DNA from: an uncultured Chlamydiae bacterium
GTDB lineage: Bacteria > Chlamydiota > Chlamydiia > Chlamydiales > JAJFMB01
DNA: 64,000 bases
Assembly (NCBI GenBank): GCA_963696295.1
Contig: CAVOJR010000001.1
Span: 3,120,095-3,184,094, forward strand
Direction of reading: 5' to 3'
Shown: piece after piece, positions 9,966 through 57,515 of the stretch
How positions within the stretch are numbered: the stretch's first letter is position 1
How the letters are laid out: each line of letters opens with the position of its first letter
The notes under the pieces: generated by a model
The model's input: only the letters and a program-made list of their open reading frames with translations
What the model was told of the DNA's origin: nothing
Databases searched by the model: none
Translations under genes and position numbers: made by a program

Positions 9966-10172
9966 ATGAGCCTGATTATCACTATTCTCGTCGCGTTTGC
10001 TTTTTTTCTGCTGGCTCTGGCCCTTGTGGCCATCGGCTGGCTTATCACCGGAAAAATGAAGGTCAAAATCGGCGCTTGCGGACGAGTTCCGGATAAAGAT
10101 AATAAATGCGGCGAGGAAACCAAATGCAGCCTTTGCGACGAGGGAAAGAAAGAGAAAGATGACCTACAATAA
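9966..10172 (+). CDS. Small single-TM Cys-rich protein, possibly NqrM-like
   Basis: 68 aa. One TM helix (IITILVAFAFFLLALALVAIGWLI) is followed by GACG...C...C..C. The 3' end overlaps the ubiE start by 14 nt. The architecture resembles the NqrM/DUF539 maturation factor (from memory). Confidence 0.45.
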   Translation: MSLIITILVAFAFFLLALALVAIGWLITGKMKVKIGACGRVPDKDNKCGEETKCSLCDEGKKEKDDLQ

Positions 10173-10884
10173 ACAAGACCCGGAAACTATTCAGACCCTT
10201 TTTGGCAACATCGCGTCTCAATACGACCGCACCAACAGCGTGCTATCATTCAAGCTGCACAAATACTGGAACAATGAGCTGGTCAAAGCCATATCAGAGG
10301 AAGAATCTCCCAGAACTTTGCTCGACCTTTGCTGCGGAACCGGCGAAATCGCCTTGACCTACCTGAAAAAGACCCCGGTGCGCTGCCAGGCTTATCTCTT
10401 AGATTTTTGCGAAGAGATGCTGCAATGCGCCAAAGCTAAAGCGGAAGATCAATTGCTCCATCACCACACCCTGACCTATTTAAGGGCGGATGCGCAAAAT
10501 ATCCCGCTGGCCAAAGAGAGCGTCAAAGCCTGCACGATCGCCTATGGCATCCGCAATGTGAAAGAACCGAAGAAGTGCATTGAAGAGGTATTCCGCGTGC
10601 TGGAGCCGGGCGGGCGCTTTGCTATCCTGGAACTCACGCAACCCAAAAATAATCTTCTCCGTTTTGGCCACAGCTGCTATTTGCGGTTTGTTTTGCCCCA
10701 AATCGGTCGGCTGCTCACCCGAAATAAAGAAGCGTACCAATATTTGTGCCAGAGCATCCAAAACTTTGTCGACCCGCAAGTGCTCGAAGAGCAGTTGAAA
10801 GAGGCCGGTTTTGTGGAAACATACCGCAAACCTTTAAATGGCGGGATCGCCACCATCATTTTTGGACGAAAGCCGCTTCGTTAA
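10159..10884 (+). CDS. ubiE: Demethylmenaquinone/ubiquinone methyltransferase
   Basis: Motifs FGNIASQYDRTNSVLSF, LDLCCGTGE (SAM motif I), IAYGIRNV and VLEPGGRFAILE. Confidence 0.9.
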   Translation: MTYNKQDPETIQTLFGNIASQYDRTNSVLSFKLHKYWNNELVKAISEEESPRTLLDLCCGTGEIALTYLKKTPVRCQAYLLDFCEEMLQCAKAKAEDQLLHHHTLTYLRADAQNIPLAKESVKACTIAYGIRNVKEPKKCIEEVFRVLEPGGRFAILELTQPKNNLLRFGHSCYLRFVLPQIGRLLTRNKEAYQYLCQSIQNFVDPQVLEEQLKEAGFVETYRKPLNGGIATIIFGRKPLR

Positions 10885-11916
10885 TTCTCCCCTCAGCAGC
10901 TTTCCTAAGGGAGAGCGGGGGATGGCAGGCACGAAATGGGTTTGCCTGATCCTCTCAAAGGGAAGAACTCTCTCGTGAAAGCGTTTTAGAAATAGTTCTA
11001 CGGAATCACCGGTGTAGACTAAATGCAGGGCGTGCCCGAGCCGATCGTCCGGCATGGCGACAAGAGCGCAGTCGAGCTCTCCTCTCAATTCCTCTACAAG
11101 CAGGGTCAATTTCTTCAAATCGACGCTCTCCCCTCCAACTTTCACAAAATCGCTGTTTCTTCCTTGGATCTCCAGAATATCACCATGAAAAGAAGCATGG
11201 TCCTCTGTCAGGAACCACCCCATCTTCTTAGGGTCTTCAAAGCTGACATTTTCTTGGGTGAAAAAGGCATAGGCTGTTAACAATGAAGGGCTTTTGATCA
11301 TCAAGAGGCCTCTATCAGTAACTTTTGCCTCAATATGCGGCAGCAATTTCAGCTCCGGGGAATCTTTTGTCGCGGTCGCGACTTGCGAAGCGCACTCGGT
11401 CAGACCGTAGCTCGGCATCAAAGGCCAGCCCAATTTTTTGCCCTTTTCATAGAGATCGCATGAGAGCGCTCCCCCGCCCACAACCACTCCGCGAAGCGAC
11501 GGAGGGGCCTTACTCTCGAGCTTCACCAAGTCGTAGATTTGCGTCGGCACAAGGGCTGTCAAGGAGGCCCGGCCGGCTTCTAAAAGAAATTGGGCCGGAT
11601 CCCATTTACCAGGCAGATCGATGACTTCCGAGCCGCTGAGGTAAGCCCTGGCCAGGATGCCGGCTCCCCCCACATGGAAATGGGGCAAGCATTTCACCCA
11701 CTTATCAGCTTTTGTCGCTTGCAAATGTTCATTCACCGCGTGCGCAGAGGCGAAAAGCGCGCTTTTGGAGAGAGCCACCGCCTTGGACTGTCCGGTTGAA
11801 CCGGAGGTCAAAAACCAGAGGTGATCGGCCAGCTGCCCCTCCAAAAGGGCCTCTATCCGCTCCCGTCCGGGCATGCGGGGATTCAGCAAAACTTGAGTCT
11901 TTTCCCAGTCGATCAC
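10834..11916 (-). CDS. menE: O-succinylbenzoate-CoA ligase (short form)
   Basis: AMP-binding motif TSGSTGQSKAV, plus YGLTECAS and a C-terminal LGKLLRGEL. Last gene of the men cluster. At 360 aa it is N-terminally shorter than typical MenE. Confidence 0.8.
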   Translation of the reverse strand: MIDWEKTQVLLNPRMPGRERIEALLEGQLADHLWFLTSGSTGQSKAVALSKSALFASAHAVNEHLQATKADKWVKCLPHFHVGGAGILARAYLSGSEVIDLPGKWDPAQFLLEAGRASLTALVPTQIYDLVKLESKAPPSLRGVVVGGGALSCDLYEKGKKLGWPLMPSYGLTECASQVATATKDSPELKLLPHIEAKVTDRGLLMIKSPSLLTAYAFFTQENVSFEDPKKMGWFLTEDHASFHGDILEIQGRNSDFVKVGGESVDLKKLTLLVEELRGELDCALVAMPDDRLGHALHLVYTGDSVELFLKRFHERVLPFERIRQTHFVPAIPRSPLGKLLRGELTKRLSSKNDGGDPAI

Positions 11917-12794
11917 AGCTTTTTCCAGGGTAACTTGGCAAGCAAAGCGTCAAACCCGAAACCGGTGCCTTCGGGAGGGGTGAGAAAGGGCCCTTTTTGG
12001 GGCAGCTGCTCACTAAATTCGTTCGTCTGATAAACAAGATGACTGCAAAGACCACCAGTCGCCACCTTCAGTTGGGCTGCGATATAGGCCGCTGAAAGCT
12101 GTCCCAGAGGATGGTCCAAATAGGAAGTGACCACCAGCTTCTGGCTGAGATTCTGAAAGGGGGCGTGGGCTTGAACGGCCGGTTTTAAAATGAGTACTTT
12201 TGCAGCCTTGGTCTTGCCGATCGCCCGCTCCGAACCGGCATCGCAGGCTAAACTTACTGAATATTGCTCCTGCAGGCGCTGCCAGGCCACTTCTGAAAAG
12301 GGAAAGGGGTCTTCGATAAAATCGAAAAAAGGAAGAAAGGGAACCATCTCTTCTAAAAAAGCCTCGAACGCCCTTTCGGTCAAACGGGCGTTAAAATCGA
12401 GCCGCACCTGGCAGGGAAACTTTTCGAGCAGCATTTTCAGCTGCTCTTTTTCTTCAAGCTCTCTTCCCATTTTGATTTTAAACAAAGAGGTGTCGGGAAT
12501 CTCATCGGTGATCTTCAGGAGCAGATGGTGGCTCGGAGGAATGGCCAATCCATCGAAAAGGGAGCGCTTTTTAGCACGCGCCTCTCTGTCCAGTCCGGCG
12601 AAATAGAGGGAGCGCTCAGTCAAGCGGGTGGTTTGACCGTCGGCCAATCGCTTGAGCTGTTCCTGCAGAGGCAAATCCCCCAGCTCTACCCAAGGGTGGC
12701 AGTCGGCGTAGCCCCCCTCTACAGAAAGGAGCGCACCCTCCCTCACCATGCCCCCCGTTTTCGCCTTAAGGGTATAGCGATGAAAGGTTATCAT
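11913..12794 (-). CDS. menC: O-succinylbenzoate synthase (enolase superfamily)
   Basis: FKIKMGR...VRLDFNARLT pattern and its position between menA and menE. Start chosen at ATG 12794, which forms an ATGA overlap with the menA stop. The longer listed ORF (to 12893) would overlap menA by 103 nt. Confidence 0.75.
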   Translation of the reverse strand: MITFHRYTLKAKTGGMVREGALLSVEGGYADCHPWVELGDLPLQEQLKRLADGQTTRLTERSLYFAGLDREARAKKRSLFDGLAIPPSHHLLLKITDEIPDTSLFKIKMGRELEEKEQLKMLLEKFPCQVRLDFNARLTERAFEAFLEEMVPFLPFFDFIEDPFPFSEVAWQRLQEQYSVSLACDAGSERAIGKTKAAKVLILKPAVQAHAPFQNLSQKLVVTSYLDHPLGQLSAAYIAAQLKVATGGLCSHLVYQTNEFSEQLPQKGPFLTPPEGTGFGFDALLAKLPWKKL

Positions 12795-13651
12795 ACCAGC
12801 AATCCAATCGCCATAAGCGCCCCGAACATCATATGGAGCAAAGCCCCCATCCCTAAAATTTGGTTGTAGGCCGGACTCGGGGGCAATTGCCACACTTTCA
12901 GGGCAACGCTAATGGCTACGGGCAAGGCCAGCCAGGGCAAAAAAGCCGCCATAAATTGATGATGGATCCAATAGAGGGTGAGGAAAAACGGGAAAAATGC
13001 GCAAAAGGTGATCGCCCCTTTCCCGAAATTTACGCCGTATCTCACGGCGATCGTGCGCTTATTTGCCTCGCTATCGGTTGAAAAATCGCGGACATTATTT
13101 ACCGCGATGAGGAGCGTGGCGAGCAGCCCGATCTGCGTCCCTGCGATCAGAGCCTCCCAAGAGAGCCCGCCGGTTTGGATATAATAAGTTCCGCCTATGC
13201 CGATCAGCCCAAAAAAAACAAAGACGAACACCTCGCCAAGGCCAAGATAGGCCAAGGGAAAGGGGCCGCCCGTGTACATATAAGCCAGCAGCAGGGAAAT
13301 GCAGAGCAGGCAAGCGATGACCGCCCCCCCTTGAATCACCAGGGGCACAGCAAACAGGGCGCCTAAGGCAAGGCAGGCCATCCCCCCTCTCATCACGGCG
13401 GAGGGGGTGAGCAGGCCGCTTTGCACCACCCGCACCGGGCCGATTCTTTTCTCAGTGTCGGCCCCTTTTTTGAAATCCAGCGCGTCATTGAGCAGATTTG
13501 TGGCTATCTGAACGAAGACAGCCGCAAACAGGCAGCAAAGCGCCAGGAACCATTTTGGATGAGGAGCTAGAGCTGTCCCCACCAGCACAGGAATCACCGA
13601 TGCGGTAAGGGTCTTTGGCCTCGCCGCCATAATCCACGCATTCATTGGCAC
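12791..13651 (-). CDS. menA: 1,4-dihydroxy-2-naphthoate polyprenyltransferase
   Basis: UbiA-family motifs ARPKTLTASVIPVLVG and NLLNDALDFKKGADT...RIGP. Polytopic hydrophobic protein. Confidence 0.9.
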   Translation of the reverse strand: MPMNAWIMAARPKTLTASVIPVLVGTALAPHPKWFLALCCLFAAVFVQIATNLLNDALDFKKGADTEKRIGPVRVVQSGLLTPSAVMRGGMACLALGALFAVPLVIQGGAVIACLLCISLLLAYMYTGGPFPLAYLGLGEVFVFVFFGLIGIGGTYYIQTGGLSWEALIAGTQIGLLATLLIAVNNVRDFSTDSEANKRTIAVRYGVNFGKGAITFCAFFPFFLTLYWIHHQFMAAFLPWLALPVAISVALKVWQLPPSPAYNQILGMGALLHMMFGALMAIGLLV

Positions 13652-13656
13652 CTCCC

Positions 13657-14486
<830 letters not shown>

Positions 14487-14490
<4 letters not shown>

Positions 14491-15152
14491 TGCACATCTC
14501 CTATGAATTGTTTTAGTTGTTCTTGAAGCTCATTTTCCCAAAGTAGGCGGTGGCCCGCTTCCGGAACCCTCCATTCCCTTGATTTTTTGTTCGTAAAGGC
14601 TAGGCCGCATGTGGCCTTTGGGTCCCTTTCCCCTGTGATCCAGAAGAGGGGCATCGGCAAAGCGGCAATCAAAGGAGTCAAATACTCCTGATGGCCAACC
14701 GACCACTTTTCCAGCACCTGGCAAAGAATTGCCCGGTCATAGTCTGCCTCATTTCTCATCACAGATCGATCCCCGGCAAAGACGCCCTGGCCATTCCAAT
14801 CCCGCATCAGTTTCTCCCAAGGGTCGTTCAAAAAGCGCTTGGCCCATTTTTTATCCTGGGCCAGGCGCTCCTCCCTTTCCCGCTTCTCTTTAAGGCCGGG
14901 ATTGGCGGAGATGATCACCGCCGCTTTCCAACGTTTTGGATTTTGAATCAGCGCGTGCAGGGCAAGCCTGCCCCCCAGGGAATACCCCGCCAGGACGCTC
15001 TCCCCGGAAACCCGGGCATTAAATTGCTCTGCCCACTCGGCTAGGCTTTTGATCGGAGGCTGAAAAAGATTGATATTGTTTGCCTTCGGCAGGCTCTGCT
15101 GCCAATCGCCTGGCCGTCCCAAAAAGCCATGTAGAGCGTATATATCGGTCAT
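14487..15152 (-). CDS. menH: SHCHC synthase (alpha/beta hydrolase)
   Basis: LHGFLG oxyanion motif, GYSLGG nucleophile elbow, 4-nt overlap with menB. Confidence 0.75.
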
Positions 15153-15339
15153 TATAGAGAGGCCTTATTTCATCTGATCCATCTTTCATACTTAAGATTC
15201 CTTAAATTTGCAAGGATTCAATACGGCAAGCGGCATCCCAGACTTTAATATTTAAGTGAGGTATTATGATAAAATAAGAACAAAACAAGAAATTAGAATC
15301 GCGGAAATTAGACCATTAGGCCTCTATGTCAAGCTAATA

Positions 15340-15361
15340 AGGCTAATCCTTAGATTAGCCT
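15340..15361 (-). terminator. Hairpin downstream of the 68-aa ORF
   Basis: AGGCTAATC / GATTAGCCT perfect 9-bp stem with a 4-nt loop, 14 nt past the stop at 15375. Confidence 0.4.
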
Positions 15362-15374
15362 CGCAGAATGCCCT

Positions 15375-15581
15375 TTATTCGAATCCGGGGCCTGATGTTG
15401 CCGTCTTCCAGGCAGAATCAAGAACATTTTTAGCAACTGTAGACGCCATGGAATTAACCTGTTCATGAATATATTTATCAGCGGCCTTCTGCATTTGTTT
15501 ATCGAATTCGATGCTGCCGCAACCGACTTGAGCTTCTCCCTTCATGGTCGCAACTAATTTATTATAATCACTGCTTATCAT
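15375..15581 (-). CDS. Hypothetical 68-aa protein
   Basis: Strong RBS (AGGAGGG) upstream of the ATG. No recognisable motif. Confidence 0.6.
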   Translation of the reverse strand: MISSDYNKLVATMKGEAQVGCGSIEFDKQMQKAADKYIHEQVNSMASTVAKNVLDSAWKTATSGPGFE

Positions 15582-15759
15582 ATACCCTCCTGTTATTAGG
15601 TTTTTTATTTGTTATACTAATAATTATAACTCAACATTTTAAATGCGATATATAGATTTTATTATTTTTCTGCAAAATTGACGTCGACAAAAAGGAAATG
15701 AAATCTTTATTAAAAATTAAAATAGTTCCTATATAATTAGCAGTAAATAAAGGGGAAAA

Positions 15760-17328
15760 ATGGCTGCTATTTCAAATTATCATCTTTCCAATAAAGAAAT
15801 CTTCTTATCATTTGCAACGGGTTTTAGTGCTATTCCTTATGCCATGCGCCACTTCCAGGAAGCAAAAAACAGTGGAAATTATGCCTACTATGCCCACAAG
15901 GCCATCGGTTCTATTCAATGTATTCCTGTAATTGGGGGGCTTTGCGCCTTAGCGGAACGCATTGCGGTATTGGCCTGTAAGAAAATATTTGCAAAACCGA
16001 TCCCGCCGGTCGAGAAATATAAAGATGATGAAACCACCCCTATACAAAAAATAGGTAAAGAGGATGATCCTGCTGACGTATCAATGGATCCTCCCCCGGT
16101 AATTGAAATAGACCAGAAAATCCTCGATAATCCGAAAGCGCTAGTTGAGATAGCGGCAACTTTCGGTGTACTTTACTACAAGGATTATGAAAGCATCCGC
16201 CTTCATCTTGCCAAACTTGCAGAACAGAACTATCCTTTTGAACCGGTGGATAAGTGGATTTGCCAAGCGGTGTTAGGGGATCCCCTTTTCAATATCGAGG
16301 AGTTTCAAAAACTGCCGGAGGAGATGCGTTGTAAAATCTTTTTTGTCGCCAATCGCTTTCAACATGAGGATTTAGTCAATCAATTGAAACCTTATACACC
16401 CAAAGGGGAAAACATTGCCCTGGAGGGGTATTCCATCTCTCCATCGGATGCTACTTTACAGGAAACCCGCACAAATATTATTTCGTTTTATAAAACTCTT
16501 AGAGAAGAGGGATCCATTCTTACTGTCAGTGAGTTTTTTGCTTTTGAGGATGAAATCAAAGCAAAACTCGATGGTTTTCTTGAATCCCTATGGAATCATC
16601 CCCCCAGTAATGGGGAGGAGCTAAACAAACAGGTAAAGCTTTTTTACGATACGGTTGACGCTGAAATCGGAAGTAAGAATAACAATCATGTGAATTTCCA
16701 TCTGATGAGGATGAAATATGCCTTAGATCAGGTTACTTATAGCAGCGACTTTAAAAATATAATTAAAAAAGTGGGAAAGTATTTTAGGAACCGCTCCTAT
16801 ATACCAAGCATAAGCACCATTAAAGAGGATAGCGGCGCAGGGTTTTATGTCAAAAGTAAGCCTTTGATTTCGCGAATCAAAGGAATAAAGTGGTGTGATA
16901 AAGTAATCAAGGAAAATAATTTACAGTATATAAAAGTTCCTAAAAAGATATTAATCGTCAATGATTCCCTAGAAAAATTTAATGTAGACACTTCGGGGGA
17001 ATTAGTTGATCCTCACGAAAACCCTCCCTATTGTCTTATCGCAGAGCAGATCTATGAAACGGATAATACGCCATCTGCAGGGGAAGACATCCAGATGAAG
17101 GCTAATGAAGAGCTGAAAACATTTGCCAAAAAATCGTATTTTTCTGATTTTTACGGTAGAAATTTCTTGTGGCACTTTGATCATTCTCTTTACTGTATTG
17201 ATACGGAATTTAATAGCTTTACATTTCCACCAGACCAGAAACTCTCAACGAGCATTTATAGGCAATTTTGTCCACCCAATTGGAGATTTACTTACACCAT
17301 CCCCTTGAGAAATAACGCCTTTGCTTAA
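15760..17328 (+). CDS. Hypothetical 522-aa protein; C-terminus with kinase-like D-x4-N ... ID-x-E pattern
   Basis: GGGGAAAAA before the ATG. AT-rich. C-terminal SDFYGRNFLWHFDHSLYCIDTE resembles a catalytic loop plus metal-binding Asp of atypical kinases. Confidence 0.65.
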   Translation: MAAISNYHLSNKEIFLSFATGFSAIPYAMRHFQEAKNSGNYAYYAHKAIGSIQCIPVIGGLCALAERIAVLACKKIFAKPIPPVEKYKDDETTPIQKIGKEDDPADVSMDPPPVIEIDQKILDNPKALVEIAATFGVLYYKDYESIRLHLAKLAEQNYPFEPVDKWICQAVLGDPLFNIEEFQKLPEEMRCKIFFVANRFQHEDLVNQLKPYTPKGENIALEGYSISPSDATLQETRTNIISFYKTLREEGSILTVSEFFAFEDEIKAKLDGFLESLWNHPPSNGEELNKQVKLFYDTVDAEIGSKNNNHVNFHLMRMKYALDQVTYSSDFKNIIKKVGKYFRNRSYIPSISTIKEDSGAGFYVKSKPLISRIKGIKWCDKVIKENNLQYIKVPKKILIVNDSLEKFNVDTSGELVDPHENPPYCLIAEQIYETDNTPSAGEDIQMKANEELKTFAKKSYFSDFYGRNFLWHFDHSLYCIDTEFNSFTFPPDQKLSTSIYRQFCPPNWRFTYTIPLRNNAFA

Positions 17329-17331
17329 TAA

Positions 17332-17628
17332 TTGATAATATGGTATAATATTTATATGATTAGTATAATTGATGACAATTTTGTCCAACTTCCCCCTTTA
17401 AAAGGGTGCGCCGCAATCCTTTCCTCCTGTGAGGAACGGGTGCATCTCATAGGAATTACCACACTGGCCCGCCTTTCAGAGATTAAGCAGGCTGTGCTTG
17501 AAAGCTGGTCCGAATCGATACGCGAGCAGGCAAAGCGGATTCAAGAGGAGCTCAGCTCTTCTGCTTATTTGAGCCATATGGCCTATCTGAAGATCCTCCT
17601 GGAACCTAAGGTTCACACGAATTTTTAA
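17332..17628 (+). CDS. Hypothetical small protein (start uncertain, possibly ATG 17356)
   Basis: The ORF begins 4 nt after the preceding stop. No motif. Contains the left copy of an 18-bp direct repeat. Confidence 0.35.
   Translation: MIIWYNIYMISIIDDNFVQLPPLKGCAAILSSCEERVHLIGITTLARLSEIKQAVLESWSESIREQAKRIQEELSSSAYLSHMAYLKILLEPKVHTNF
17568..17585. repeat. Left copy of 18-bp direct repeat TTTGAGCCATATGGCCTA
   Basis: An identical 18-mer recurs at 18411-18428. The pair brackets the P-loop kinase pseudogene. Confidence 0.7.
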
Positions 17629-17654
17629 TAAAATTTTTTCATTAAAATCTATAC

Positions 17655-18328
17655 ATGAAAACCCCCCGTTTGAAGAAATTTGCTTTGATCGGACTTCCCG
17701 GAAGCGGCAAGTCCACATACGCTTCCAAGCTGGGCGGAATTCAGCCGGAGTTTACAAACTCATTGCCGGCATCTGACGCAATCTTTTGACGTCCAACCGC
17801 TTAATGTTTTTCGCGCTTAGCCACATGGGTAATACGCTCAAAACATTAATCGGTTGGACGTCAAAATCTTGCATCATCTGCCGACAAGCAGTTTGTAAAC
17901 TCCGGCTAGGCATTCCGGTTCATCATCTGGACAGGCATATGTTTGAGCCGGACGGAAAGAAGAAGGACAAGCTGGAATTCATAAAGATTCAAAAAGATAT
18001 GCTCGACGAAGAAGCCTGGGTTGTAGAGGGGTGTTCTTTTTCGACTTTCGAAATGAGGTTCGCCAAGGCGGATGTTCTGATTTATTTCCATTTTCCCCGC
18101 CTCGTTTGCATCTTCAGACTTTTCAGAAGAATATTTAATTACAAAAGAGATTTCGGCGGCTTAAGAGCTGTTACATGGGAAATTTTGAAATACACTTGGA
18201 ACTTTGATAAAGAAAAAAGAGCCAAAATTGAAGAACTCAGGCAAAAGTATCCCCAAACAGAATTTCTCATCTTCAGAAGGCAGAAAGACGCCGATCTGTT
18301 CATAAAATCCTTGACAAAGTCAGATTAG
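17655..18328 (+). pseudogene. P-loop NTPase/adenylate-kinase-like (topology modulation FlaR-like) gene interrupted by a palindromic element
   Basis: The N-terminal piece MKTPRLKKFALIGLPGSGKSTYASKLGGI (ATG 17655) runs into a TGA inside the insert. The C-terminal piece IPVHHLDRHMFEPDGKKK... runs to 18328. Removing 17743-17915 (element plus one ATTC copy) gives ...SKLGGIPVHHLD... in a single 167-codon frame. Confidence 0.8.
17743..17911. mobile_element. MITE-like palindromic insertion (169 bp) with ATTC target-site duplication
   Basis: Arms 17745-17810 and 17840-17905 are reverse complements, about 56 of 66 nt by hand alignment, with CCGGAGTTTACAAACT termini. ATTC at 17739-17742 recurs at 17912-17915. 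No coding capacity. Confidence 0.75.
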
Positions 18329-18410
18329 CCAAAAAAAGTCTTGGCATAGCGAAAATTGGTCTTATTATCATTACTGACTCAAGGAAGGAGATATGCGGGC
18401 TTGTAGCTAC

Positions 18411-18428
18411 TTTGAGCCATATGGCCTA
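18411..18428. repeat. Right copy of 18-bp direct repeat TTTGAGCCATATGGCCTA
   Basis: Identical to 17568-17585. The core GCCATATGGC is itself palindromic. Confidence 0.7.
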
Positions 18429-18695
18429 GGAGCCGAAGTATTGGAGGTTAATTTGTCAGTTAATGGCTGCGATCATGTGGCGTGAGTCTTTACGGTTATG
18501 GTTTGGCTTTTAAGAGAGCTATCGATATGTGCGGGTTGTGGGACGGCGTGGTTGATGGAAAAGATCTTGGAAAAGAATTCAAAAATGAAGCAGCAGATAT
18601 GGCAAAAGGTCTTATAATCGTAATTTCCAGCAGAGTTTTTAGAGAGATAGCCTCGAGGCTAGAGCAGGCCCGGCTTCACGGGCCGTGCTGAAACG

Positions 18696-19655
18696 TCAGG
18701 ACTGATTAAACTTCGCTGTGCAGTCTCGCACATAGCGATATTTTTTCTCCACATCACTCAAATTACCCCCATCCCGGTAAAACTGCTTATCGATATATTC
18801 CCCGTTATGAACCACTCTCCAGGAATCGTTATCGATGACATCAGCCAATAATAAATTGCCCTTGGTATCAAAACCAAATTCCACTTTGAAATCGACCAGT
18901 ATCGACCCCTGCAATTGCCAGGCTCTTTCTAAGATTAAGAAGGTTTTTTTGGCAATGTCTCCCATTTTTGTAAAGTATTCCTCCCTCCCTTTTAAAGGAT
19001 AATCCTCCAGAACCATAAACGGTTTCACAACAGGACATTTGGGATCGTAAAGTTCAGCCTTGCCCTCTTTGAACAGGACGTAGGGATCATCACTTACTAA
19101 TTTTGCTCCCTTCCATTCCTGATCTTTCGTTTTTAAGAAAAACTCTAAAATTAAATCGGGGAAAACATGCCCCTTTTCTAATTCTGGATTGCGTTTGAGG
19201 TAGGAACCGTGTGCTTGTCTTCGGATAACGACCTCATAGAAAATCATATCGCACTTAGGGGCAGTAAAACGGATGGCATCAAGCTGTTGATAAAATGCCA
19301 CCGGCACACCCTGTTTTTTCAGCAACTGAAATACATGGCACGTGGTGCCGGTCGAGTATTCCGCTTTTGAACAGAGCATATCGTGTTTCTTGCCGTCAAA
19401 AGCAGTAATGTCGTCTTTTGAGGTGATAACGACTGTTGCGGGATCCTGCTCCAGTTGGGTGATGATTTTAGTTTTTCCTTCGGTTATCTTTAATCTTGGA
19501 TTAGAAATAGAGGCCAAAACACTCGTATAAGTGATTGCATTTTGTATTGGATAATAGATTGGCCGTCCATAAAACATCGGACGGATAGTGTAGAAGGCCG
19601 TTGCATTTAATCCTCTATAGACGACATTTGTTCCCAAACCAAAAGTAAAATTCAT
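18696..19655 (-). CDS. purC: SAICAR synthetase-like protein, eukaryotic PAICS-type, with ~55-aa N-terminal extension
   Basis: EGKTKI, SKDDITAFDG, ...GSYLKRNP..., LVDFKVEFGFD and LLADVIDNDSWR match my recollection of the human PAICS N-terminal domain (YEGKTKEV, SKDQITAGN, GSFLKRNP, LVDMKIEFGVD, VLADVIDNDSWR). Lies 64 nt downstream of menD on the same strand. Confidence 0.75.
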   Translation of the reverse strand: MNFTFGLGTNVVYRGLNATAFYTIRPMFYGRPIYYPIQNAITYTSVLASISNPRLKITEGKTKIITQLEQDPATVVITSKDDITAFDGKKHDMLCSKAEYSTGTTCHVFQLLKKQGVPVAFYQQLDAIRFTAPKCDMIFYEVVIRRQAHGSYLKRNPELEKGHVFPDLILEFFLKTKDQEWKGAKLVSDDPYVLFKEGKAELYDPKCPVVKPFMVLEDYPLKGREEYFTKMGDIAKKTFLILERAWQLQGSILVDFKVEFGFDTKGNLLLADVIDNDSWRVVHNGEYIDKQFYRDGGNLSDVEKKYRYVRDCTAKFNQS

Positions 19656-19719
19656 AACTTTCTCCCCATGCAGTTGTTAATTGAAAGGGGAAGACAGTAC
19701 CAGATTTGAAAGGTATCAC

Positions 19720-21198
19720 TCAAGTTAATTCAATCAGGGTCGGGCGCAAGAGGGAAAATTGTTCCGGTATGGCGCTCCACCTTTCATAATGAAGACCCCA
19801 GAATTTAGCCATACTTTCAAAGCTCAAATTGTGTTCATTCAGGAATAGTTTTGAAGGAAACATCTTGTTAAAGATTTGTCCCCCTCCATTATTCACGACG
19901 ACAATGGCTATTTTTTGAGCGGCTAATTGGGGGATAACCCAGGGAGCGGCCAGGTCGTAGAGGGCCGTAAGGTCGCCGATCAGCGCCCAGTTCTCCTGGG
20001 TGGCGCCGCAAAGGCCGAGAAAGGTGGAAATCTGCCCGTCGATGCCGTTCAATCCGCGGCTTGCGAAAACCTCAAAGCGCTTGAGCGACGCGGCGAGATC
20101 CCAATGGCGGATCGGCAGACTGTTGCCAAGATAAACCAGGGAGCCTTCGGGGATCAGCTTAGAGAGATCATGAATCATCGCCCTCTCTGAGCAGTGGTCC
20201 TGCGGGTGCTCAGTTTGTACAGCGAAATCATAGCGCCGCTTTACCTGATATGAGGCTAAAAAGGGAGCGAGATCTGTCTGGAGCAGCTTGCCATGGCTCA
20301 AACCGCTGAAAGGTGAATGGGTGATGGAAAGCACTTCGAGCCGATGATCTTCCAGGTCGCGCCATAAACGGGTGGTGGGCACGCCGCCAAGGCGCAAAAC
20401 AGAGTCAAACTCCTTAACCCGCTTTTCCACATTATGGAGGCGAAGGTGCTGCAGCTTCGGCTCCTCGCGAAGACCCGAGATCGCTTCCAGATAGACCGGG
20501 GCGTTTAAGGCGAGCAGGAACTCCAAAACAGCCGCTCTATCCCGGGGGAGCAGCGTGCTGACCAGCGCCAACGGGCGCTCCACGCGCTGAAAAAATTGAT
20601 CGAGAGGCAAGGAATTGGCCAAAGTCGCCGGCAATGTTTTTTTTGCCGGAGTGAAGCGCTCTTTACAGATCGTCTTTATCAAGGGCTCTTCAAAGCAGAC
20701 GTTGATATGCGCGGGGCCCTTTTGATCCCATTCGCTCAAATCGCAGAGGTCATAATCCGCTAAATCCTGAGAATGTGTCACATAAGTTCCAAAAATCCCG
20801 ACCTGTTCCGCTGTCTGGGGCGCTCCGGTTCCCCGGTATCTCCTGGGACGGTCGGCAGTGATCAACAAAAGCGGAACTCCAGAATAGGCGGCTTCCATAG
20901 CCGCGGGTAAAAGCTCCCCGACCGCTGTTCCCGAGGTGGTTATCACTGCGACGGGGCGATCTGCGGCGCGGCTTTTACCCAGGGCAAAAAAGGCCGCGGA
21001 ACGCTCCTCAGGCCAATAAAAGATGTTCTCCGATTTTTCCAGGGTCATGACAAAGGGGCTGTTGCGGGCTCCCGGGCAGATGCAAAACTCCTCAACCCCG
21101 GCATTATAGGCATTTAAGAGAACCGTCCGGACAAGTTCGGCATTCAGATCGCCAGAATCTTTCGCGTCGCATCGATCTTCAAGTTGAGTTCGCTCCAT
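19720..21198 (-). CDS. menD: SEPHCHC synthase (ThDP-dependent)
   Basis: CICPGARNSPF, TSGTAVGELLPAAMEA, LLLITADRP, GLNGIDGQ. Start placed at ATG 21198 (MERTQ...). The listed ORF start at 21294 would lie deep inside menF. Even so, a 55-nt overlap with menF remains, so the start is uncertain. Confidence 0.85.
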   Translation of the reverse strand: MERTQLEDRCDAKDSGDLNAELVRTVLLNAYNAGVEEFCICPGARNSPFVMTLEKSENIFYWPEERSAAFFALGKSRAADRPVAVITTSGTAVGELLPAAMEAAYSGVPLLLITADRPRRYRGTGAPQTAEQVGIFGTYVTHSQDLADYDLCDLSEWDQKGPAHINVCFEEPLIKTICKERFTPAKKTLPATLANSLPLDQFFQRVERPLALVSTLLPRDRAAVLEFLLALNAPVYLEAISGLREEPKLQHLRLHNVEKRVKEFDSVLRLGGVPTTRLWRDLEDHRLEVLSITHSPFSGLSHGKLLQTDLAPFLASYQVKRRYDFAVQTEHPQDHCSERAMIHDLSKLIPEGSLVYLGNSLPIRHWDLAASLKRFEVFASRGLNGIDGQISTFLGLCGATQENWALIGDLTALYDLAAPWVIPQLAAQKIAIVVVNNGGGQIFNKMFPSKLFLNEHNLSFESMAKFWGLHYERWSAIPEQFSLLRPTLIELT

Positions 21199-22139
21199 TC
21201 TTTCTCCAGTTTGCTTTCTTTTACCACTCCGCAGCCGGCTCCGATCTGCCATCTTTCCCCTTCCCGCTGCACGTTGCGGATGGCGACATAGCATTGGCCG
21301 GCGTTTTCCCGCCAGTACCCTACCGGGGCGCCAAAGCGCTTACGCGGCAGCAAGGTCTGATAACGCTCTAGCCATTCTTTACCCGCCTCTTTTGGATAAG
21401 CCCCGAGCGCCGGCGTCGGATGCAAAGCGTGTACCAGCTGATAAAATCCGTCAATCCCCGCATCCAGACTTCTGACATCGAGATCGATGGGGGTAACCAG
21501 ATGCTTAAGCGTGGAATAATTAATGACTTCAGTGTTACCAATTTTCACCTTTCCAAATGGGGAAAGCGCTTGTTCGATTCCATCGATGACCAGGCGATGC
21601 TCCCTATTTTCCTTGGGATCTTCAGCCAAGGGCTCTTCGCCGGTCCGCTTTGTCCCTGCCAGGGCAACGCTTTTTACTATCCCCTTTTCCAAAGAAAAGA
21701 GCTTTTCGGGAGTCGCGCCTAAAATGGTCTCGTGCTCATCCCAAAAGCCATAGGCGTAAACGGGATGCTTTTGAATATAGCTTAATAAATGGGTTAAACA
21801 CCAGTTTAGTTTTTCTTTGGACCAGGGAGTATTGGCATGGGCAAAGACATAGGGGACAGCTTTTTCGAGCGTGATGCCCTTAAATTGTTCGGAAAAAAAA
21901 CCAAAATAAGGGTTTTCCCAATGAAAATCAGCTCCTTTTAAGGGGGGAGGCAGGCTGAGTTTAGAAATAACTTCCTGATGCTCATGAGTAAACCAGGCTT
22001 TTGGCTCTTTTAAAAAGAAGTCGGGAAAATAGAAGCTTTCCGGGCCGGGAGAAGCAGACCAGCGTCTTTTACCCCAGCCGACAAGCAGCTGAGAAGGGTT
22101 TAAACTGACAATCGCGCCGCACTTTAAAAACTCGTCCAT
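21144..22139 (-). CDS. menF: Isochorismate synthase (short, chorismate-binding core only)
   Basis: GATPEKLF, LAGTKRTG, HPTPALGAYP, RFGAPVGY, GAGCGVV..S....EW.E. Confidence 0.85.
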   Translation of the reverse strand: MDEFLKCGAIVSLNPSQLLVGWGKRRWSASPGPESFYFPDFFLKEPKAWFTHEHQEVISKLSLPPPLKGADFHWENPYFGFFSEQFKGITLEKAVPYVFAHANTPWSKEKLNWCLTHLLSYIQKHPVYAYGFWDEHETILGATPEKLFSLEKGIVKSVALAGTKRTGEEPLAEDPKENREHRLVIDGIEQALSPFGKVKIGNTEVINYSTLKHLVTPIDLDVRSLDAGIDGFYQLVHALHPTPALGAYPKEAGKEWLERYQTLLPRKRFGAPVGYWRENAGQCYVAIRNVQREGERWQIGAGCGVVKESKLEKEWSELNLKIDATRKILAI

Positions 22140-22300
22140 GGCTTAGGATCGTAGCGCACTTAAAATTCCCTTTGCAAGAGGTTTTTGAGGAGTGTTTTAG
22201 CGTCAGAATTTGTAAAAGGGAACTGATGCAAATGACCTTGATAAATAAAGAGGTAGAAAAATATTCATGAAATAAATGGCATTATAATATCTTATTAAGA

Positions 22301-23314
22301 TTAAATTTTTTCCCACTCATCGCTAATTTCGCTCCAGCAGCTGGCGGGACTTTCTGATTCCTGGCGTGCCCCCTCTAAGAGAAGAGGTGGGTTATTATTT
22401 TGAGGAGCGCCTTCTTGCCATTCTATCGAAAGAAATTCTCTTTTTTGGATTTCTTGTTCTGGTGAAGTGTAGAAATGCTTCCCAAGCTTTGCTCCTGAAA
22501 TGACCAGAAACGATCCAAGCGCTATTCCTAAACGGATCTGACTGGCAGGAGGCAAACGGTATTCTATGCCTCCTCCGATGCCATAAATCACTGTGTGTAC
22601 CGGCGATCGCACATTAGCCGCTGCCAGGGCGGCATAGGCGCCTGTTTTTTCCCCTTCTGTAACGGCGACAGCCGGCGCGGCGATCAGGGCTGTCACTCTT
22701 GTGGCCACTGTGAGCAAGAGCGCATTTCTAGCGCCGCATAAAGCCCCGTTTATGGCTCGCGACAGAAGTTTTTCATAATCGGGAGAGTCATCCGCACAGT
22801 CGGAAGCCCCAGACAGAGCCCCGCTGACGGCCCCGGTCACAATAGCTATTTTTAGGGCGTAGATTTCACTTTGCAGATTCCAGGACTTAATATCGCCTAT
22901 CTTAGCGTCAAACCAAAAATTACTGCGTGAATTTTCAACCCTGTTGATCAGGCCGAGTGTATGGCAGACCTTGTCCTTCCAGGTGACTTTGACATGAAAA
23001 TCATTTATATTCCCTATGTCGTGGTGGCACTGCAGGCAACAGGCTTTTATTTTTTTTAAGTCGCAATAAGCTTCAACTTTTCCAAGGCAGCTTTCGTGAT
23101 AACAGTGAACCAGCTTTGGCCTCTCGCGGGCATCTGCCGCTCCCGGGTGGCCGAATGGAGTCATATCATTGAGTTGGAAAAGGGCACTGATTTTTTGGGC
23201 GGCAGAGTGGTAAGGAGCTATCAATGGCTCTTCGCAAAAAAGGCAATTCTCGGCATTGTGGGCATAGTAAATTTGATCTTCTAGAGAGAGTTTGGAATAG
23301 GTGACGGCAGACAT
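22301..23314 (-). CDS. Hypothetical protein: N-terminal Cys/His cluster (RING/zinc-finger-like) plus Gly/Ala-rich hydrophobic C-terminal half
   Basis: AAGGAG RBS. CLFC ... HCYHESC ... C ... CCLQCHH within the first ~100 aa. Later hydrophobic segments IAIVTGAVSGALSGA, LLLTVATRVTALIAAPAVAV and IALGSFLVISGA. Confidence 0.7.
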   Translation of the reverse strand: MSAVTYSKLSLEDQIYYAHNAENCLFCEEPLIAPYHSAAQKISALFQLNDMTPFGHPGAADARERPKLVHCYHESCLGKVEAYCDLKKIKACCLQCHHDIGNINDFHVKVTWKDKVCHTLGLINRVENSRSNFWFDAKIGDIKSWNLQSEIYALKIAIVTGAVSGALSGASDCADDSPDYEKLLSRAINGALCGARNALLLTVATRVTALIAAPAVAVTEGEKTGAYAALAAANVRSPVHTVIYGIGGGIEYRLPPASQIRLGIALGSFLVISGAKLGKHFYTSPEQEIQKREFLSIEWQEGAPQNNNPPLLLEGARQESESPASCWSEISDEWEKI

Positions 23315-34033: not shown

Positions 34034-36514
34034 ATGGACAGACGCAGCTTAATTTTTGTTATCGCTCTTTCTTTAACCCTTTTAGGTGTAAACACTTTTT
34101 TCCAATGGTTAAACCGCGGAGAAGTGGAAAAATGGCAGGAGCAGCAAAAAGCCTCCCTTGTCCTCGAAGAAAAGGAGCTTGCCGCCCAAGTCTCCGAGCA
34201 TACCGCGAAGCCGCAAGACCTGCCGCTTGTCGATCTGTTCGCCGACGAAGCGGGCCAAAATTATATCGGCCGGGGCGTCAAAGCCGGCGATACCGTGCTC
34301 ACCCTTTCCTGGGCCTCGGAACTGCCTAAAACTTTATTCAGCCGACCCTCGAACACCGAAAAAGCGTTGGAAAAAGTTGAAATTGCCTTTGCTCCGGAAA
34401 AACTGAAAGAACTCGCTGTTTACCGCTCCAAGCCCGAAGCGAAAATTCCCCTGGGATCCCTCCCCGCCAGCGGCCACTACGAACTTCAGCTGATAGAATT
34501 GCCTAAAGGCGAAATTGCTCTTGGGGAATATACTGATGGAGAATTATCAATACCCGCTGAACAGCTGCAGAAAATACGCGTCAGACTGGGGGAAGCAAAA
34601 GACATGGGCAAAGTCGGCAACGCCGTTGTCCTTTTCAAATCCACTCCTGTCGCAGTCTATGCGAGCGACACGAATTCTTTAGTCATGATCGAACATATCT
34701 TCAATCTCGGCTCACTCATTTCCGCTCCCGAAGCCAAAAAGGGTTTGAAAGCCGGAGAACGCTCTTCTGAAAAATTCTATGTGCTCGAAAATGACTACCA
34801 GCAGCTGGTCTTTTCCAATTACGGCGGTGCGCTGGCTGAGATCAATTTGCCCTTTAAAAACGAAAGCAACGACCGCAGCGTCGTCAGAGAGATCCAATTT
34901 GACCGCGACATGGTTAAAAACCACTCCTATAACGCCTACTTTCCGCAACACCCCTTTTACATTGCGGGCGTCGATAAGGAGCAGCCAAAAGGAAAACTTG
35001 GCGGCTATTACCCCTTGATCCGGCGCGATCTGATCGAATCTTCGAGCGGAAAATCCGTCAGAGTGGTCCCCTACTTTTACGCCCTTAACTTTATCTCGGA
35101 ATACCCTGAAGTTTCGGAGATTGTTTTTGATGTGCAATCTTTTACGAAAGATAAAATTGTCTTTGTCGCCAATCAGACTCACCGCCGCATCACAAAAACC
35201 TACTCGATTGCCGGACAGGAGAATGGAGCTCCCTATTGCATCGATTTGACTATTCAGATCGAGGGGGATTCGCGCGGTCTGTGGCTCTCAAGCGGCGTGC
35301 CTGAAGTGGAAATGATCTCCGGCTCCCCGGCGCCTGCGTTGAAATACCGGATTTTGAAAAACAACAACAAATCTGAAGTGAATGAAATTTCTCTTCCGAA
35401 AGACACAGCCACCGTTACCACGGTCAATCCCGATTGGATCAATACGGCAAACGGCTTTTTCGGCCTGATTGTCGATCCGCTGACAAAAATCGAACCGGGG
35501 TACCGCGTCCAGTATGTATCCGGCACTGTCGTCCCTTCAAGACTCGTTGAAATCGACCCTGAGTACAACCTTTTCAAGGCTCAAAATTTGCCCGGCTATA
35601 TGGCTATGCTGCCGATAAAATCGCGCAATGGAAGCTTGACTTTCCGCGTCTTTGCCGGTCCCTTCGCTGACAATATCTTAAAAACCGTCGACAGAACCTT
35701 TACCGATCCGGCCACCGGAGCCAGCCCCCAATATGTTGATGTGCAAAGCTTTCATGGCTGGTTTGCCTTTATATCCGAACCGTTTGCGAAGTTCCTGTAC
35801 ATCGTGATGAACTTCTTCCACAGCCTCACCAACTCGTGGGGTATTTCGATCATCCTCCTTACGGTTTTCCTCCGCCTGATGCTCTACCCGTTGAACGCCT
35901 GGTCCGCCCGCTCAATGGTAAAAATGCAGGAAATAGCCCCCAAAGTGCAGGCTATCCAGGAAAAGTATAAAAACGATCCGCGCAAATCACAACTCGAAAT
36001 CATGAATCTCTACCGGGAATCGGGAGCGAACCCCTTCTCCGGCTGCTTTCCGATCCTGATACAAATTCCGTTTCTGATCGGGATGTTCGGTTTGCTGAAA
36101 ACCACGTTTTCTTTACGAGGAGCCAGCTTTATTCCCGGATGGATCAATGATCTCTCCGCCCCCGATGTGCTCTTCTCATGGGACAAACCGATTCCATTTT
36201 TCGGAACCTCTTTCCATCTGCTTCCCTTTATTTTAGGCCTGGTTATGTTCATACAGCCGCGATTGACTTCAAACGCGCCCAAAGATCCGAATCAGATGAC
36301 CGAGCAGCAAAGGCAGGCCCGCGCCATGGGGAACATCATGTCTGTCGTCTTTACGGCGATGTTTTATAATTTCCCCTCCGGCCTTAACATCTATTGGCTC
36401 TTCTCCATGCTCCTCGGCATGCTGCAGCAGTGGTGGACGCAAAAGCAAATGGAAGCGAGAAAGGGAGCTGTTGTCATCGAAGCGAAACCGGCCAAGGCAA
36501 AAGCAAAAAAATAA
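34034..36514 (+). CDS. yidC: Membrane protein insertase YidC (long periplasmic domain form)
   Basis: N-terminal TM, large periplasmic domain, then WGISIILLTVFLRLMLYPLN, MQEIAPKVQAIQEKYKNDP and NPFSGCFPILIQIPFLIGMF. Confidence 0.93.
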   Translation: MDRRSLIFVIALSLTLLGVNTFFQWLNRGEVEKWQEQQKASLVLEEKELAAQVSEHTAKPQDLPLVDLFADEAGQNYIGRGVKAGDTVLTLSWASELPKTLFSRPSNTEKALEKVEIAFAPEKLKELAVYRSKPEAKIPLGSLPASGHYELQLIELPKGEIALGEYTDGELSIPAEQLQKIRVRLGEAKDMGKVGNAVVLFKSTPVAVYASDTNSLVMIEHIFNLGSLISAPEAKKGLKAGERSSEKFYVLENDYQQLVFSNYGGALAEINLPFKNESNDRSVVREIQFDRDMVKNHSYNAYFPQHPFYIAGVDKEQPKGKLGGYYPLIRRDLIESSSGKSVRVVPYFYALNFISEYPEVSEIVFDVQSFTKDKIVFVANQTHRRITKTYSIAGQENGAPYCIDLTIQIEGDSRGLWLSSGVPEVEMISGSPAPALKYRILKNNNKSEVNEISLPKDTATVTTVNPDWINTANGFFGLIVDPLTKIEPGYRVQYVSGTVVPSRLVEIDPEYNLFKAQNLPGYMAMLPIKSRNGSLTFRVFAGPFADNILKTVDRTFTDPATGASPQYVDVQSFHGWFAFISEPFAKFLYIVMNFFHSLTNSWGISIILLTVFLRLMLYPLNAWSARSMVKMQEIAPKVQAIQEKYKNDPRKSQLEIMNLYRESGANPFSGCFPILIQIPFLIGMFGLLKTTFSLRGASFIPGWINDLSAPDVLFSWDKPIPFFGTSFHLLPFILGLVMFIQPRLTSNAPKDPNQMTEQQRQARAMGNIMSVVFTAMFYNFPSGLNIYWLFSMLLGMLQQWWTQKQMEARKGAVVIEAKPAKAKAKK

Positions 36515-36540
36515 GGCCAAAAATAAGGCCAAAAATAACA
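36507..36540 (+). repeat. 12-bp tandem repeat (AAAAATAAGGCC x2.8) that includes the yidC stop codon
   Basis: Units at 36507-36518 (contains the TAA stop at 36512-36514), 36519-36530 and a partial one at 36531-36540. Confidence 0.8.
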
Positions 36541-36570
36541 CTTGTTCCAATTGTATCTCTGGTTTAATTT

Positions 36571-36640
36571 ATACCTAAACAACTTGAAGAGTTTGTTAAG
36601 GAACCTATCCAATTCCCAACTCTTCAAGTTGTTTGGGTAT
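36571..36640. repeat. 23-bp-stem hairpin with TATACC(C/T)AAACAA termini between yidC and dnaA
   Basis: ATACCTAAACAACTTGAAGAGTT (36571-36593) pairs with AACTCTTCAAGTTGTTTGGGTAT (36618-36640), 22 of 23 complementary, with a 24-nt loop. Confidence 0.75.
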
Positions 36641-36666
36641 AAAACTCTTGAATTGGAATGTAACGT

Positions 36667-38043
36667 ATGCAGGCTTGGGAAAATTTCTTAAAGAGTCAGA
36701 TTACCGAGATCGGCAAAGAGGCTGTGCAAAAATGGCTGAAGCCCCTGAAAATCCTGCGCTATGACGCCCAAAACCTCTATCTGGAAGCCAAAGACACCTT
36801 CCAGGCCCTTTGGTTTGAAGAGCATATCCGCCCGAAAACCAAAAGCATAACCAATAACAATAACCGCCCCATCCGAATCCACTTAGCTATTGCCAACCAG
36901 GTCAAAGTCGATCCTAAAAAGCAAAAAGAGACTCCCAAACAAACAATCCCTCCCTTTAAAATCACCTTTGAAGAGCTCTCCCCTCACTGTACTTTCGAGC
37001 AATTTTTAGTGCATGAGGGCAACTTGCTCGTCTATAAATTGCTTTGCAAAGTGACGGGCTATGATGCCGAAAGCCATAAACTTATTCCGGGAGCCGCCGA
37101 ACTGGTCTCCTTTAACCCTATATTCCTGCATGGCCCGTCGGGCACCGGGAAAACCCATTTATTGATGGCTGCCGCTCAAGCCTTAAAAGATCGCTCTTTA
37201 AATGTGCGGTATATACGCTCGGAAAGATTTACGGAACATGTAGTGGCCGCCATTAGAGCCGGTGAAATGAGCGCCTTTCGGCAAGCCTACCGCACGATTG
37301 ATGTTCTGATCATTGACGATGTGCATATTTTCTCGCGCAAAAGAGCCACCCAGGAGGAATTCTTCCACTCCTTTAACGCTCTGCACCTCACGGGCAAACA
37401 AATTATCATCAGCGCCAATTGCCTGCCCTCAGAGCTCGCCCATATCGAGCCGAGGCTCATCAGCCGCTTCGAGTGGGGCATTGTGCTCCCCTTAGAACGG
37501 GCTGACGAGGAGGCAGCCAAAAAAATTATCCTGAAAAAGGCCGCGGCGCTGAAATTCCCCATCTCCCAAAAAGTGGTGGATTATTTGGTGAACACCTTCA
37601 AAAGCAACATGAAAGCTTTGTGCCGCGCGCTCGAAGCTTTAATTTTGCGCATCCATTTGCAGGAATCTTCCGTTTACAGCAATCACCCGGAAAATATACC
37701 GCTCCCTCTGGTTAAGCATCTTTTGGCGGACCTGGCGCGGGAAGAGGAGCGCTACGTGTTGACGGCGGATATGATACTGGAAAGCGTCGCAGGGCATTTC
37801 GAAGTTGAAAGGGAAGAGATCACCGGCAAGGCGCAGAGCCGCGATTGCGTGCTGCCCCGCCAAATCGCCATGTATCTTTGCCGCAGCCAATTAAAAATGT
37901 CCTACACAAAAATTGGAGATCTCTTTGAACGGGATCACTCTACTGTGATGACCAGCGTAAAGAGAATCCAAAAAGATTTTGACGAGGACGACAAGGATTT
38001 ATTGATGCATTTACACGCTATCACCAAGAGTTTGACCCCATGA
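36667..38043 (+). CDS. dnaA: Chromosomal replication initiator DnaA
   Basis: [11 protein letters not shown] (Walker A), LIIDDVH (Walker B), and the C-terminal DNA-binding domain RQIAMYLCR...SY..IG..F.RDHSTV. Confidence 0.93.
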
Positions 38044-57416: not shown

Positions 57417-57515
57417 GAGTTACTCCAATCTGCTTCAAAGTCACCGGCGGCGGATCCTATCAGCCCAATAACGGACATGTTCAAGGGAATAACATGAGTT
57501 TTTTAGCTTGTCAAA

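Follow-up and report, generated by a model that had tools for sequence, protein, structure and literature searches.

The 64,000-nucleotide stretch of DNA analysed here (the window; positions 3,120,095 to 3,184,094 of contig CAVOJR010000001.1, from an uncultured Chlamydiae bacterium) contains a small gene, apparently for a P-loop NTPase, that is interrupted by a palindromic sequence of 161 bp at 17745-17905, and this sequence is very probably a copy of a small non-autonomous element of the miniature inverted-repeat transposable element (MITE) kind that has recently inserted into the gene. The element has terminal inverted repeats and a flanking duplication, is polymorphic for presence at two loci, has copies in several genomes and has a hairpin that is conserved between them. 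In kind the finding is ordinary: a MITE-type insertion has recently inactivated a small P-loop NTPase gene. The family of the element is apparently undescribed, no description of MITEs in Chlamydiae being found in the searchable literature. Similarly, a 2024 review that covers Rickettsia palindromic elements does not mention Chlamydia (PMC10969869). What the insertion documents is a non-autonomous element that is currently, or was very recently, active in the under-studied environmental Chlamydiae.

The plus-strand frame that opens at ATG 17655 starts MKTPRLKKFALIGLPGSGKSTYASKLGGI, which includes the Walker A motif GLPGSGKS, and is ended by a TGA (17787-17789) within the insert to give a truncated product of 44 amino acids (aa). 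The remainder of the gene is found in another frame, in the open reading frame (ORF) 17786-18328 (...GIPVHHLDRHMFEPDG...), with its stop codon at 18326-18328; both observations had been made in the initial annotation, which was based on the sequence alone. When the 5' fragment (17655-17742, codons 1-29 and the first base of the Leu30 codon) is joined to the 3' fragment (17907-18328, which begins with the TA of Leu30 and runs to the stop), an intact protein of 169 aa is restored (169 codons and a stop), with the junction KLGGILGIPVHHLD, and the insertion point is the CTAG that lies in the codons Ile29-Leu30-Gly31 (ATT CTA GGC). The split frames at 17655-18328 are a single freshly inactivated pseudogene and not two genes: translation from the start codon is stopped after 44 codons by a TGA that belongs to the element.

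An empty version of this site is present in a near-identical genome. The Logan contig L031 (run ERR11563597), which was reached via an upstream 522-aa protein and covers the window from 14099 onward, reads GGAATTCTAGGCATTCC without interruption (in a longer reading ...AAGCTGGGCGGAATTCTAGGCATTCCGGTTCATCATCTGGAC..., the site having the form GGCGGAATTCTAGGCATTCCGG). Against the window from which 17743-17906 has been removed, L031 and L001 show 3/3798 and 0/5744 mismatches respectively and no indels, an identity of ~99.97% over 9.5 kb; the 5' fragment of the gene is identical to L031:3557-3644 and the 3' fragment is identical to L031 and L001. The end of L031 and the start of L001 overlap by exactly 30 nt (window 18031-18060), ~125 bp from the insertion site. 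As a genome with three mismatches in 9.5 kb retains the empty site, and as the rest of the gene is undamaged, the insertion is very recent, and the proposal in the initial annotation of a recent insertion of a non-autonomous inverted-repeat element is borne out by this empty site together with the other copies described below. The filled and empty alleles differ by 164 bp, placed at 17743-17906 or equivalently at 17742-17905, the ambiguity of 1 nt arising because there is a C on both sides. An orthologue, L002, is also uninterrupted at the site, where it reads GAATTCTCGGCATTCC.

The extent of the insertion had previously been drawn differently, as a 169-bp MITE (17743-17911) with a target duplication of ATTC, the excision of which would restore a 167-codon ORF reading KLGGIPVHHLD. 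There is indeed an ATTC on both sides (17739-17742 and 17912-17915) and deletion of 173 bp (17743-17915) does leave an open frame, but this account is refuted. The empty allele in L031 keeps both ATTC motifs, 9 bp apart and with TAGGC between them, and L002 has both as well; they are therefore native coding sequence, being the Gly-Ile codons (GGA ATT C.. / GGC ATT C..) of a GI.GI stretch, and the repeat that does flank members of the family is CTAG or CTCG. Furthermore, other copies of the element stop at CTCCGG and are without the AGGC tail that a 169-bp insert would include. The 166-aa product of the 173-bp excision reads KLG---GIPV where 15 of 15 aligned homologues have KLGxxLxIPV, and so is missing three residues that are found in all of them; translational bypass between the two ATT codons was rejected on the same ground, its product being without these three conserved residues.

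A search with the 166-aa version gave 354 homologues, the best of which (83-84% identity, 98-99% query coverage, ~167 aa) are from metagenome-assembled genomes (MAGs) of Chlamydiae and Parachlamydiaceae. The 169-aa product can be aligned without gaps to the homologue consensus KLGxILGIPVHHL, and its score to NCBIfam PRK08118 (the FlaR-type "DNA topology modulation protein") is 126.6 bits compared with 117.4 bits for the 166-aa version. Both scores are far under the curated equivalog cut-off of 215 bits, and "FlaR-like" therefore denotes a resemblance and not membership; matches to the Pfam families AAA_18 and AAA_33 were also under their thresholds and a PDB sequence search with the host protein found no relative. 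The earlier description of the product as FlaR/adenylate-kinase-like can thus be retained for the likeness and has to be given up for the membership: judged from its sequence, the host gene encodes a putative P-loop NTPase that resembles FlaR.

No other inverted repeat in the window comes near the palindrome in length. Its arms (17743-17815 and 17835-17907) are 73 nt in length and 85% complementary, and are separated by a loop of 19 nt (17816-17834) that lies in the central segment conserved across all copies; the initial annotation had correctly recognised the palindrome and its termini CCGGAGTTTACAAACT, with arms given as ~66 nt. Folded as single-stranded DNA it has a predicted energy of -67 kcal/mol, compared with -20.8 +/- 3.2 for 200 dinucleotide shuffles (z = -14.3), not one of which was as good (0/200). 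The element itself is the non-coding 161 bp running CCGGAG...CTCCGG, with 16-nt terminal inverted repeats that were placed by pattern search and family alignment, CCGGAGTTTACAAACT on the left (17745-17760) and AGTTTGTAAACTCCGG on the right (17890-17905), and that are perfect in the window copy (CCGGAGTTTACAAAYT). The orientation designated forward in the family alignment is the minus strand of the window, and on this forward strand the conserved central segment reads GAGCGTATTACCCA...GGCTAAGCGCGAAAAA. No frame is open in all copies, as the frame of the window copy is closed in the copy at locus L032 and the frame of that copy is closed in the window copy; a conserved small peptide (MMQDFD...) was considered and rejected as its frame is closed in L032. 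As the initial annotation had noted, there is no second copy within the window, whether by pattern search, BLASTN or covariance model.

Copies elsewhere were found by searching six-frame translations of the element against protein collections, which led to the proteins P0121, P0125 and P0126, and they occur in this genome as well as in other Chlamydiae. P0121 is a 70-aa ORF in which 47 of 50 residues are identical to the minus-frame translation of the element and it is encoded on a contig of 3,298,190 bp, equal in length to the one that carries the proteins of the window, so that this 3.3-Mb contig holds at least two copies; the second copy is known from its protein, and back-translation gives its right junction as ...CTCCGG-CTNG-T. 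P0125, a protein of "Chlamydiae bacterium GWC2_50_10", has the element in a different frame, and its locus (L032:10070-10230, also L033) has a copy of the same length that is 84% identical to the window copy. A full HMMER scan gave P0126 and P0127 and led to two loci in metagenome ERZ23498652, at L038:1676-1841 and L039:2714-2874, with 77% and 81% identity to the window copy respectively. In all, copies have been found in other Chlamydiae metagenome assemblies at L032, L038, L039, L040 and L042. The terminal inverted repeats are kept in these other copies with paired changes, the differences inside the repeat being ACAAATT and AAAAGTT.

The junctions of these copies define the target. L038 reads GGG-CTAG-[CCGGAG...CTCCGG]-CTAG-ATG, L039 reads TGT-CTAG-[...]-CTAG-AAG, and L032, like L033, reads TAC-CTCG-[...]-CTCG-AAC. 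The L032 locus also provides a second empty allele in L036/L037, which encodes 315 aa and has flanks 99.8-99.9% identical to those of L032; it reads ACCTCGAAC, with a single CTCG and exactly 165 bp fewer than L032 (161 + 4 bp), from which it follows that the element is CCGGAG...CTCCGG and that it is flanked by a 4-bp duplication of CTNG. The sites fit a 4-bp duplication (CTAG or CTCG) and equally a 2-bp duplication (TN) with the element read as G...C. Presence/absence polymorphism between close relatives is thus seen at two loci, that of the window and L032. At L040:6238-7578, L041 and L042:1544-1801 the left flank of L032 and the element are followed by unrelated DNA from CTCG onward, and these junctions reflect either rearrangements mediated by the element or jumps of the assembler through other copies.

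In the window the single CTAG of the empty allele L031 has become an intact CTAG to the right of the element (17906-17909) and a degenerate CAG to the left of it (17742-17744), where CTAG would be predicted and where other copies are perfect. The net insertion is 164 bp and not 165 bp because this one T is missing from the left target copy (C-AG); with the T present the left junction would read TTCTAGCCGG, giving a 165-bp insertion and a perfect CTAG duplication. The T may be missing because repair was imprecise, because it was lost by mutation afterwards, or because an assembly error persists in the hairpin. When it is put back, the frame of the gene still reaches a TGA ten codons into the element, and therefore the gene is broken either way.

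Terminal inverted repeats, a short duplication of fixed length at a favoured tetranucleotide, multiple copies, and clean presence and absence alleles at two loci together argue for a non-autonomous element that is mobilised by a transposase, and we infer that a DDE-type enzyme acting in trans moves it. A transposase encoded elsewhere would bind both ends of the element and make a staggered cut at a CTNG target into which the element would be pasted, and repair of the stagger would duplicate the target; at the window locus the element would have landed in the CTAG of ATT CTA GGC with the loss of one T from the left target copy. An artefact in the contig, be it foldback, chimeric or adapter sequence, would account for the fact that a short-read Logan assembly of a near-identical genome is without the insert, and the ORF pieces around the insert have no exact match in the protein collection; such an artefact is nevertheless very improbable given that the 161-bp unit recurs with 77-84% identity and the same architecture in independent assemblies (L032, L033, L038-L042), that one more copy lies on the same contig, and that the G+C content of the element (46%) fits that of the window (47.7%). 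A different kind of mobility was favoured on the window junction alone, namely that a single-stranded hairpin moved by an HUH/Y1 enzyme, like the PATEs derived from IS200/IS605 insertion sequences (IS) or the REP doublets (REPINs), had inserted 164 bp (AGCCGG...CCGGC) into TTC^TAG with no duplication. The window junctions as assembled fit this exactly, compensatory changes have kept the element a single long hairpin over its full length, and its strongly strand-biased G.T wobble pairs suggest that one strand folds alone. This proposal was dropped after L036, L038 and L039 and is now considered improbable, as the filled allele at L032 is exactly 165 bp longer than the empty one with CTCG on both sides, and at L038 and L039 a perfect CTAG stands on either side. 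Furthermore, the pairing reaches the very termini and thus constitutes true terminal inverted repeats, and no Y1 or RAYT gene is seen in the window or at any locus. IS200/IS605 elements have subterminal hairpins with guide sequences and not terminal inverted repeats.

Several observations weigh against transposition of a MITE-like element by an enzyme acting in trans. The window copy itself is without a perfect duplication (C-AG compared with CTAG) and, taken alone, would be read as an insertion without duplication; moreover there are only ~6 independent copies and the target rule is drawn from few sites. A hairpin kept along its whole length by compensatory change is unexplained by ordinary cut-and-paste transposition. 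No autonomous element with matching termini was found when the 18-mer AGCCGGAGTTTACAAACT was scanned against 185,579 GTDB species-representative genomes and the JGI metagenomes, which gave 15 and 10 single chance-level matches respectively with none extending beyond 18-23 nt, although this pattern is too strict, the AG at its start coming from the target and the repeat itself varying between relatives. No transposase gene is present in the window but for a 163-aa ORF at 50371-50862 (+) that matches PF12784 PDDEXK_2 ("PD-(D/E)XK nuclease family transposase", Rpn-like) with the match covering positions 41-161 of the 229 in the profile; the ORF is probably truncated and has no evident connection to the element. 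The transposase of an ISAzo13-type insertion sequence at L038:2384-3686 (405-aa DDE_Tnp_ISAZ013, ~31-bp inverted repeats AGGAACTGTCCAAAAATAACTTGAACATCTT), ~540 bp from the hairpin copy, was considered as the partner and rejected, as the ends of that sequence are unrelated to those of the element. Searches of viral contigs, plasmids and phages gave no match, and with a covariance model (R1) no additional diverged copy was detected in the window or the compared loci.

The conservation of the hairpin was assessed in six copies that fall into three subfamilies, and with few independent events in such a set the covariation has to be read with caution. The stem has 69 pairs and 97.8% of cells are paired; compensatory changes are found at 22 of the 69 pairs, compared with 1-4 in controls in which the 3' partners are shifted by 1-3 columns, and the observed covariation score was reached by 0/500 shuffles. 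In the inner stem the subfamilies have diverged almost completely in sequence and pairing has been kept, whilst sequence conservation is seen in the outer stem, mismatches included, and in the central loop. Wobble pairs are biased by strand: on the window minus strand there are G.T cells at 8 positions (22 cells) and A.C cells at 2 (2 cells). All six copies have the same two U.G pairs on the forward strand, and the RNA fold of the minus strand is 11-16 kcal/mol more stable than that of the plus strand. This suggests that one particular strand folds, either as RNA or as single-stranded DNA.

Two readings give the structure a larger role and both are, on balance, unlikely. The element could be a mobile structured-RNA or regulatory module comparable to ERIC, Correia or RPE-like sequences, in which hairpin and loop are selected for a function on one strand, transposition is the means of spread and some in-frame copies are tolerated. 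The compensated pairs, the two invariant U.G pairs, the greater stability of the minus-strand RNA and the contrast between a conserved loop and outer stem and a freely varying inner stem all favour such a module, as does the copy at L032, which is in frame and stop-free over 55 codons in several MAGs. However, the true start codon there is probably downstream of that copy, the host gene of the window copy is destroyed, and a search of Rfam with the element found no family, only miRNA-like hairpin matches under threshold. Correction of quasi-palindromes by template switching can yield paired changes without selection and so can mimic compensatory change. On the other reading, which is held just as tentatively, the element would be a structure-dependent mobile hairpin and not a plain IS deletion derivative, its minus strand having to fold in order to propagate or to act; the 22 compensated pairs across three subfamilies, the two invariant wobble pairs on one strand and the conserved asymmetric loop are the grounds for it. 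If correct, this reading would mean that there is either a transposition pathway that recognises hairpins and nevertheless generates a 4-bp duplication, or a function for the host, at the RNA level, carried by a mobile element of environmental Chlamydiae. The strong compensatory conservation of the hairpin raises the question of whether the structure matters for mobility or for an RNA function.

The L032 locus provides a view of how the element is lost. L032:10001-11110 together with L036, L037 and L043 forms an allelic series from near-identical populations (Chlamydiae bacterium GWC2_50_10 and related MAGs). In the filled allele the element is an in-frame, stop-free insertion of 55 codons in an annotated ORF of 369-370 aa, and this copy is probably upstream of the true start codon because paralogues are ~75 aa shorter. 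The shorter alleles in the 90% cluster of P0125 include the clean empty allele of 315 aa and another empty allele, of 311 aa, which is 12 nt shorter through a loss between two TCGAAC repeats. In L043, which also encodes 311 aa, a microhomology deletion has joined two CAATTTG repeats and only TAAACTCCGG-CTCG is kept of the right end (10 nt of the right terminal repeat). These alleles constitute a small natural series in which a hairpin was gained and then lost by microhomology deletion, and the filled, empty and partly deleted alleles at the two loci are ready-made strain markers. A different sequence of ~60-68 nt, at the end of L040 (7510-7578), matches four places in L032:18652-19522 with 82-100% identity, which shows that genome to have a further family of short repeats, dispersed or tandem.

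The broken gene lies in a neighbourhood of menaquinone biosynthesis genes that encode UbiE, MenE-like, MenC, MenA, MenB, MenH-like, MenD and MenF-like proteins. YidC and DnaA are encoded ~17-19 kb downstream of it (together these genes occupy window 10159-23314 and 34034-38043), and the window may therefore be close to the replication origin; SAICAR synthase and further housekeeping genes are also present. Three tandem arrays are found in the window, at 27934-28231, 40721-40994 and 57511-57908, with periods of 69, 68 and 69 nt, 4.0-5.7 copies and 91-94% identity; their units are mutually unrelated (local alignment scores <=12), and the first array is inside ORF 26565-28649, the other two being largely outside long ORFs and apparently intergenic. 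At 28724-29674 and 30215-32092 the minus strand encodes two eukaryote-like proteins, one having a PPR-repeat match (E = 1e-8), the other joining a Ser/Thr protein kinase to an FGE-sulfatase domain. Proteins of this kind are typical of amoeba-associated Chlamydiae.

Amongst known systems, a close parallel in form is MITEPsy1 of Pseudomonas syringae, an IS5-family derivative of 100 nt that has inverted repeats of 18 nt and duplicates 4 nt, CTAG or YTAA (PMC3189936). Like the present element it is tiny and non-coding, has terminal inverted repeats, duplicates CTAG and inactivates genes by insertion, and it is mobilised in trans. It differs in that its ends, GGAAGGTCTGAAAAAGCC, are unrelated to CCGGAGTTTACAAACT, in its length (100 nt compared with 161), in that no conserved hairpin along its whole length has been reported, and in that its parent, ISPsy2, is known. 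The targets of IS5 are of the form YTAR (CTAG, CTAA or TTAG; PMC5009759), and the sites of the present family have this form where they are CTAG (the window, L038 and L039) but not where the site is CTCG, as at L032. Ends of the IS5 type (GGAAGGT...) are absent from the element, which ends CCGGAGTTTACAAACT, and no linked IS5-family transposase was found in the window or the compared loci. Membership of an IS5-derived group is therefore not established, since the ends are unrelated and CTCG is not a YTAR site.

IS630 and Tc1-mariner elements and their MITEs duplicate TA within CTAG. Read as G...C with a 2-bp duplication, the present element has sites at the window, L038 and L039 (C-TA-G) that look exactly like IS630 targets, whereas the L032 site duplicates TC within CTCG and so breaks a strict TA rule. 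The Rickettsia palindromic elements (RPEs; reviewed in PMC10969869) are comparable by description only: they too are palindromes, of ~100-150 bp, that are found within the protein-coding genes of an obligate intracellular lineage, and the in-frame, stop-free copy at L032 is reminiscent of them. In contrast to these, the window copy is not tolerated (164 bp, a frameshift and a TGA) and the present family has clear terminal inverted repeats with a duplication. ERIC of enterobacteria and Correia (NEMIS) sequences of Neisseria are imperfect palindromes of 100-170 bp which duplicate TA and are present in tens to hundreds of copies per genome. They share with the present family the single long hairpin, the terminal inverted repeats with a short duplication and possible effects at the RNA level; they differ in that what they duplicate is TA, in that few copies are documented here, and in that they belong to other phyla and have no sequence similarity to the element (Rfam). 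Finally, REPINs and PATEs resemble it in having a long hairpin kept by compensatory change with strand-biased wobble pairs, but these are moved by Y1/RAYT enzymes without a duplication or true terminal inverted repeats, whereas for the present family the duplication has been demonstrated.

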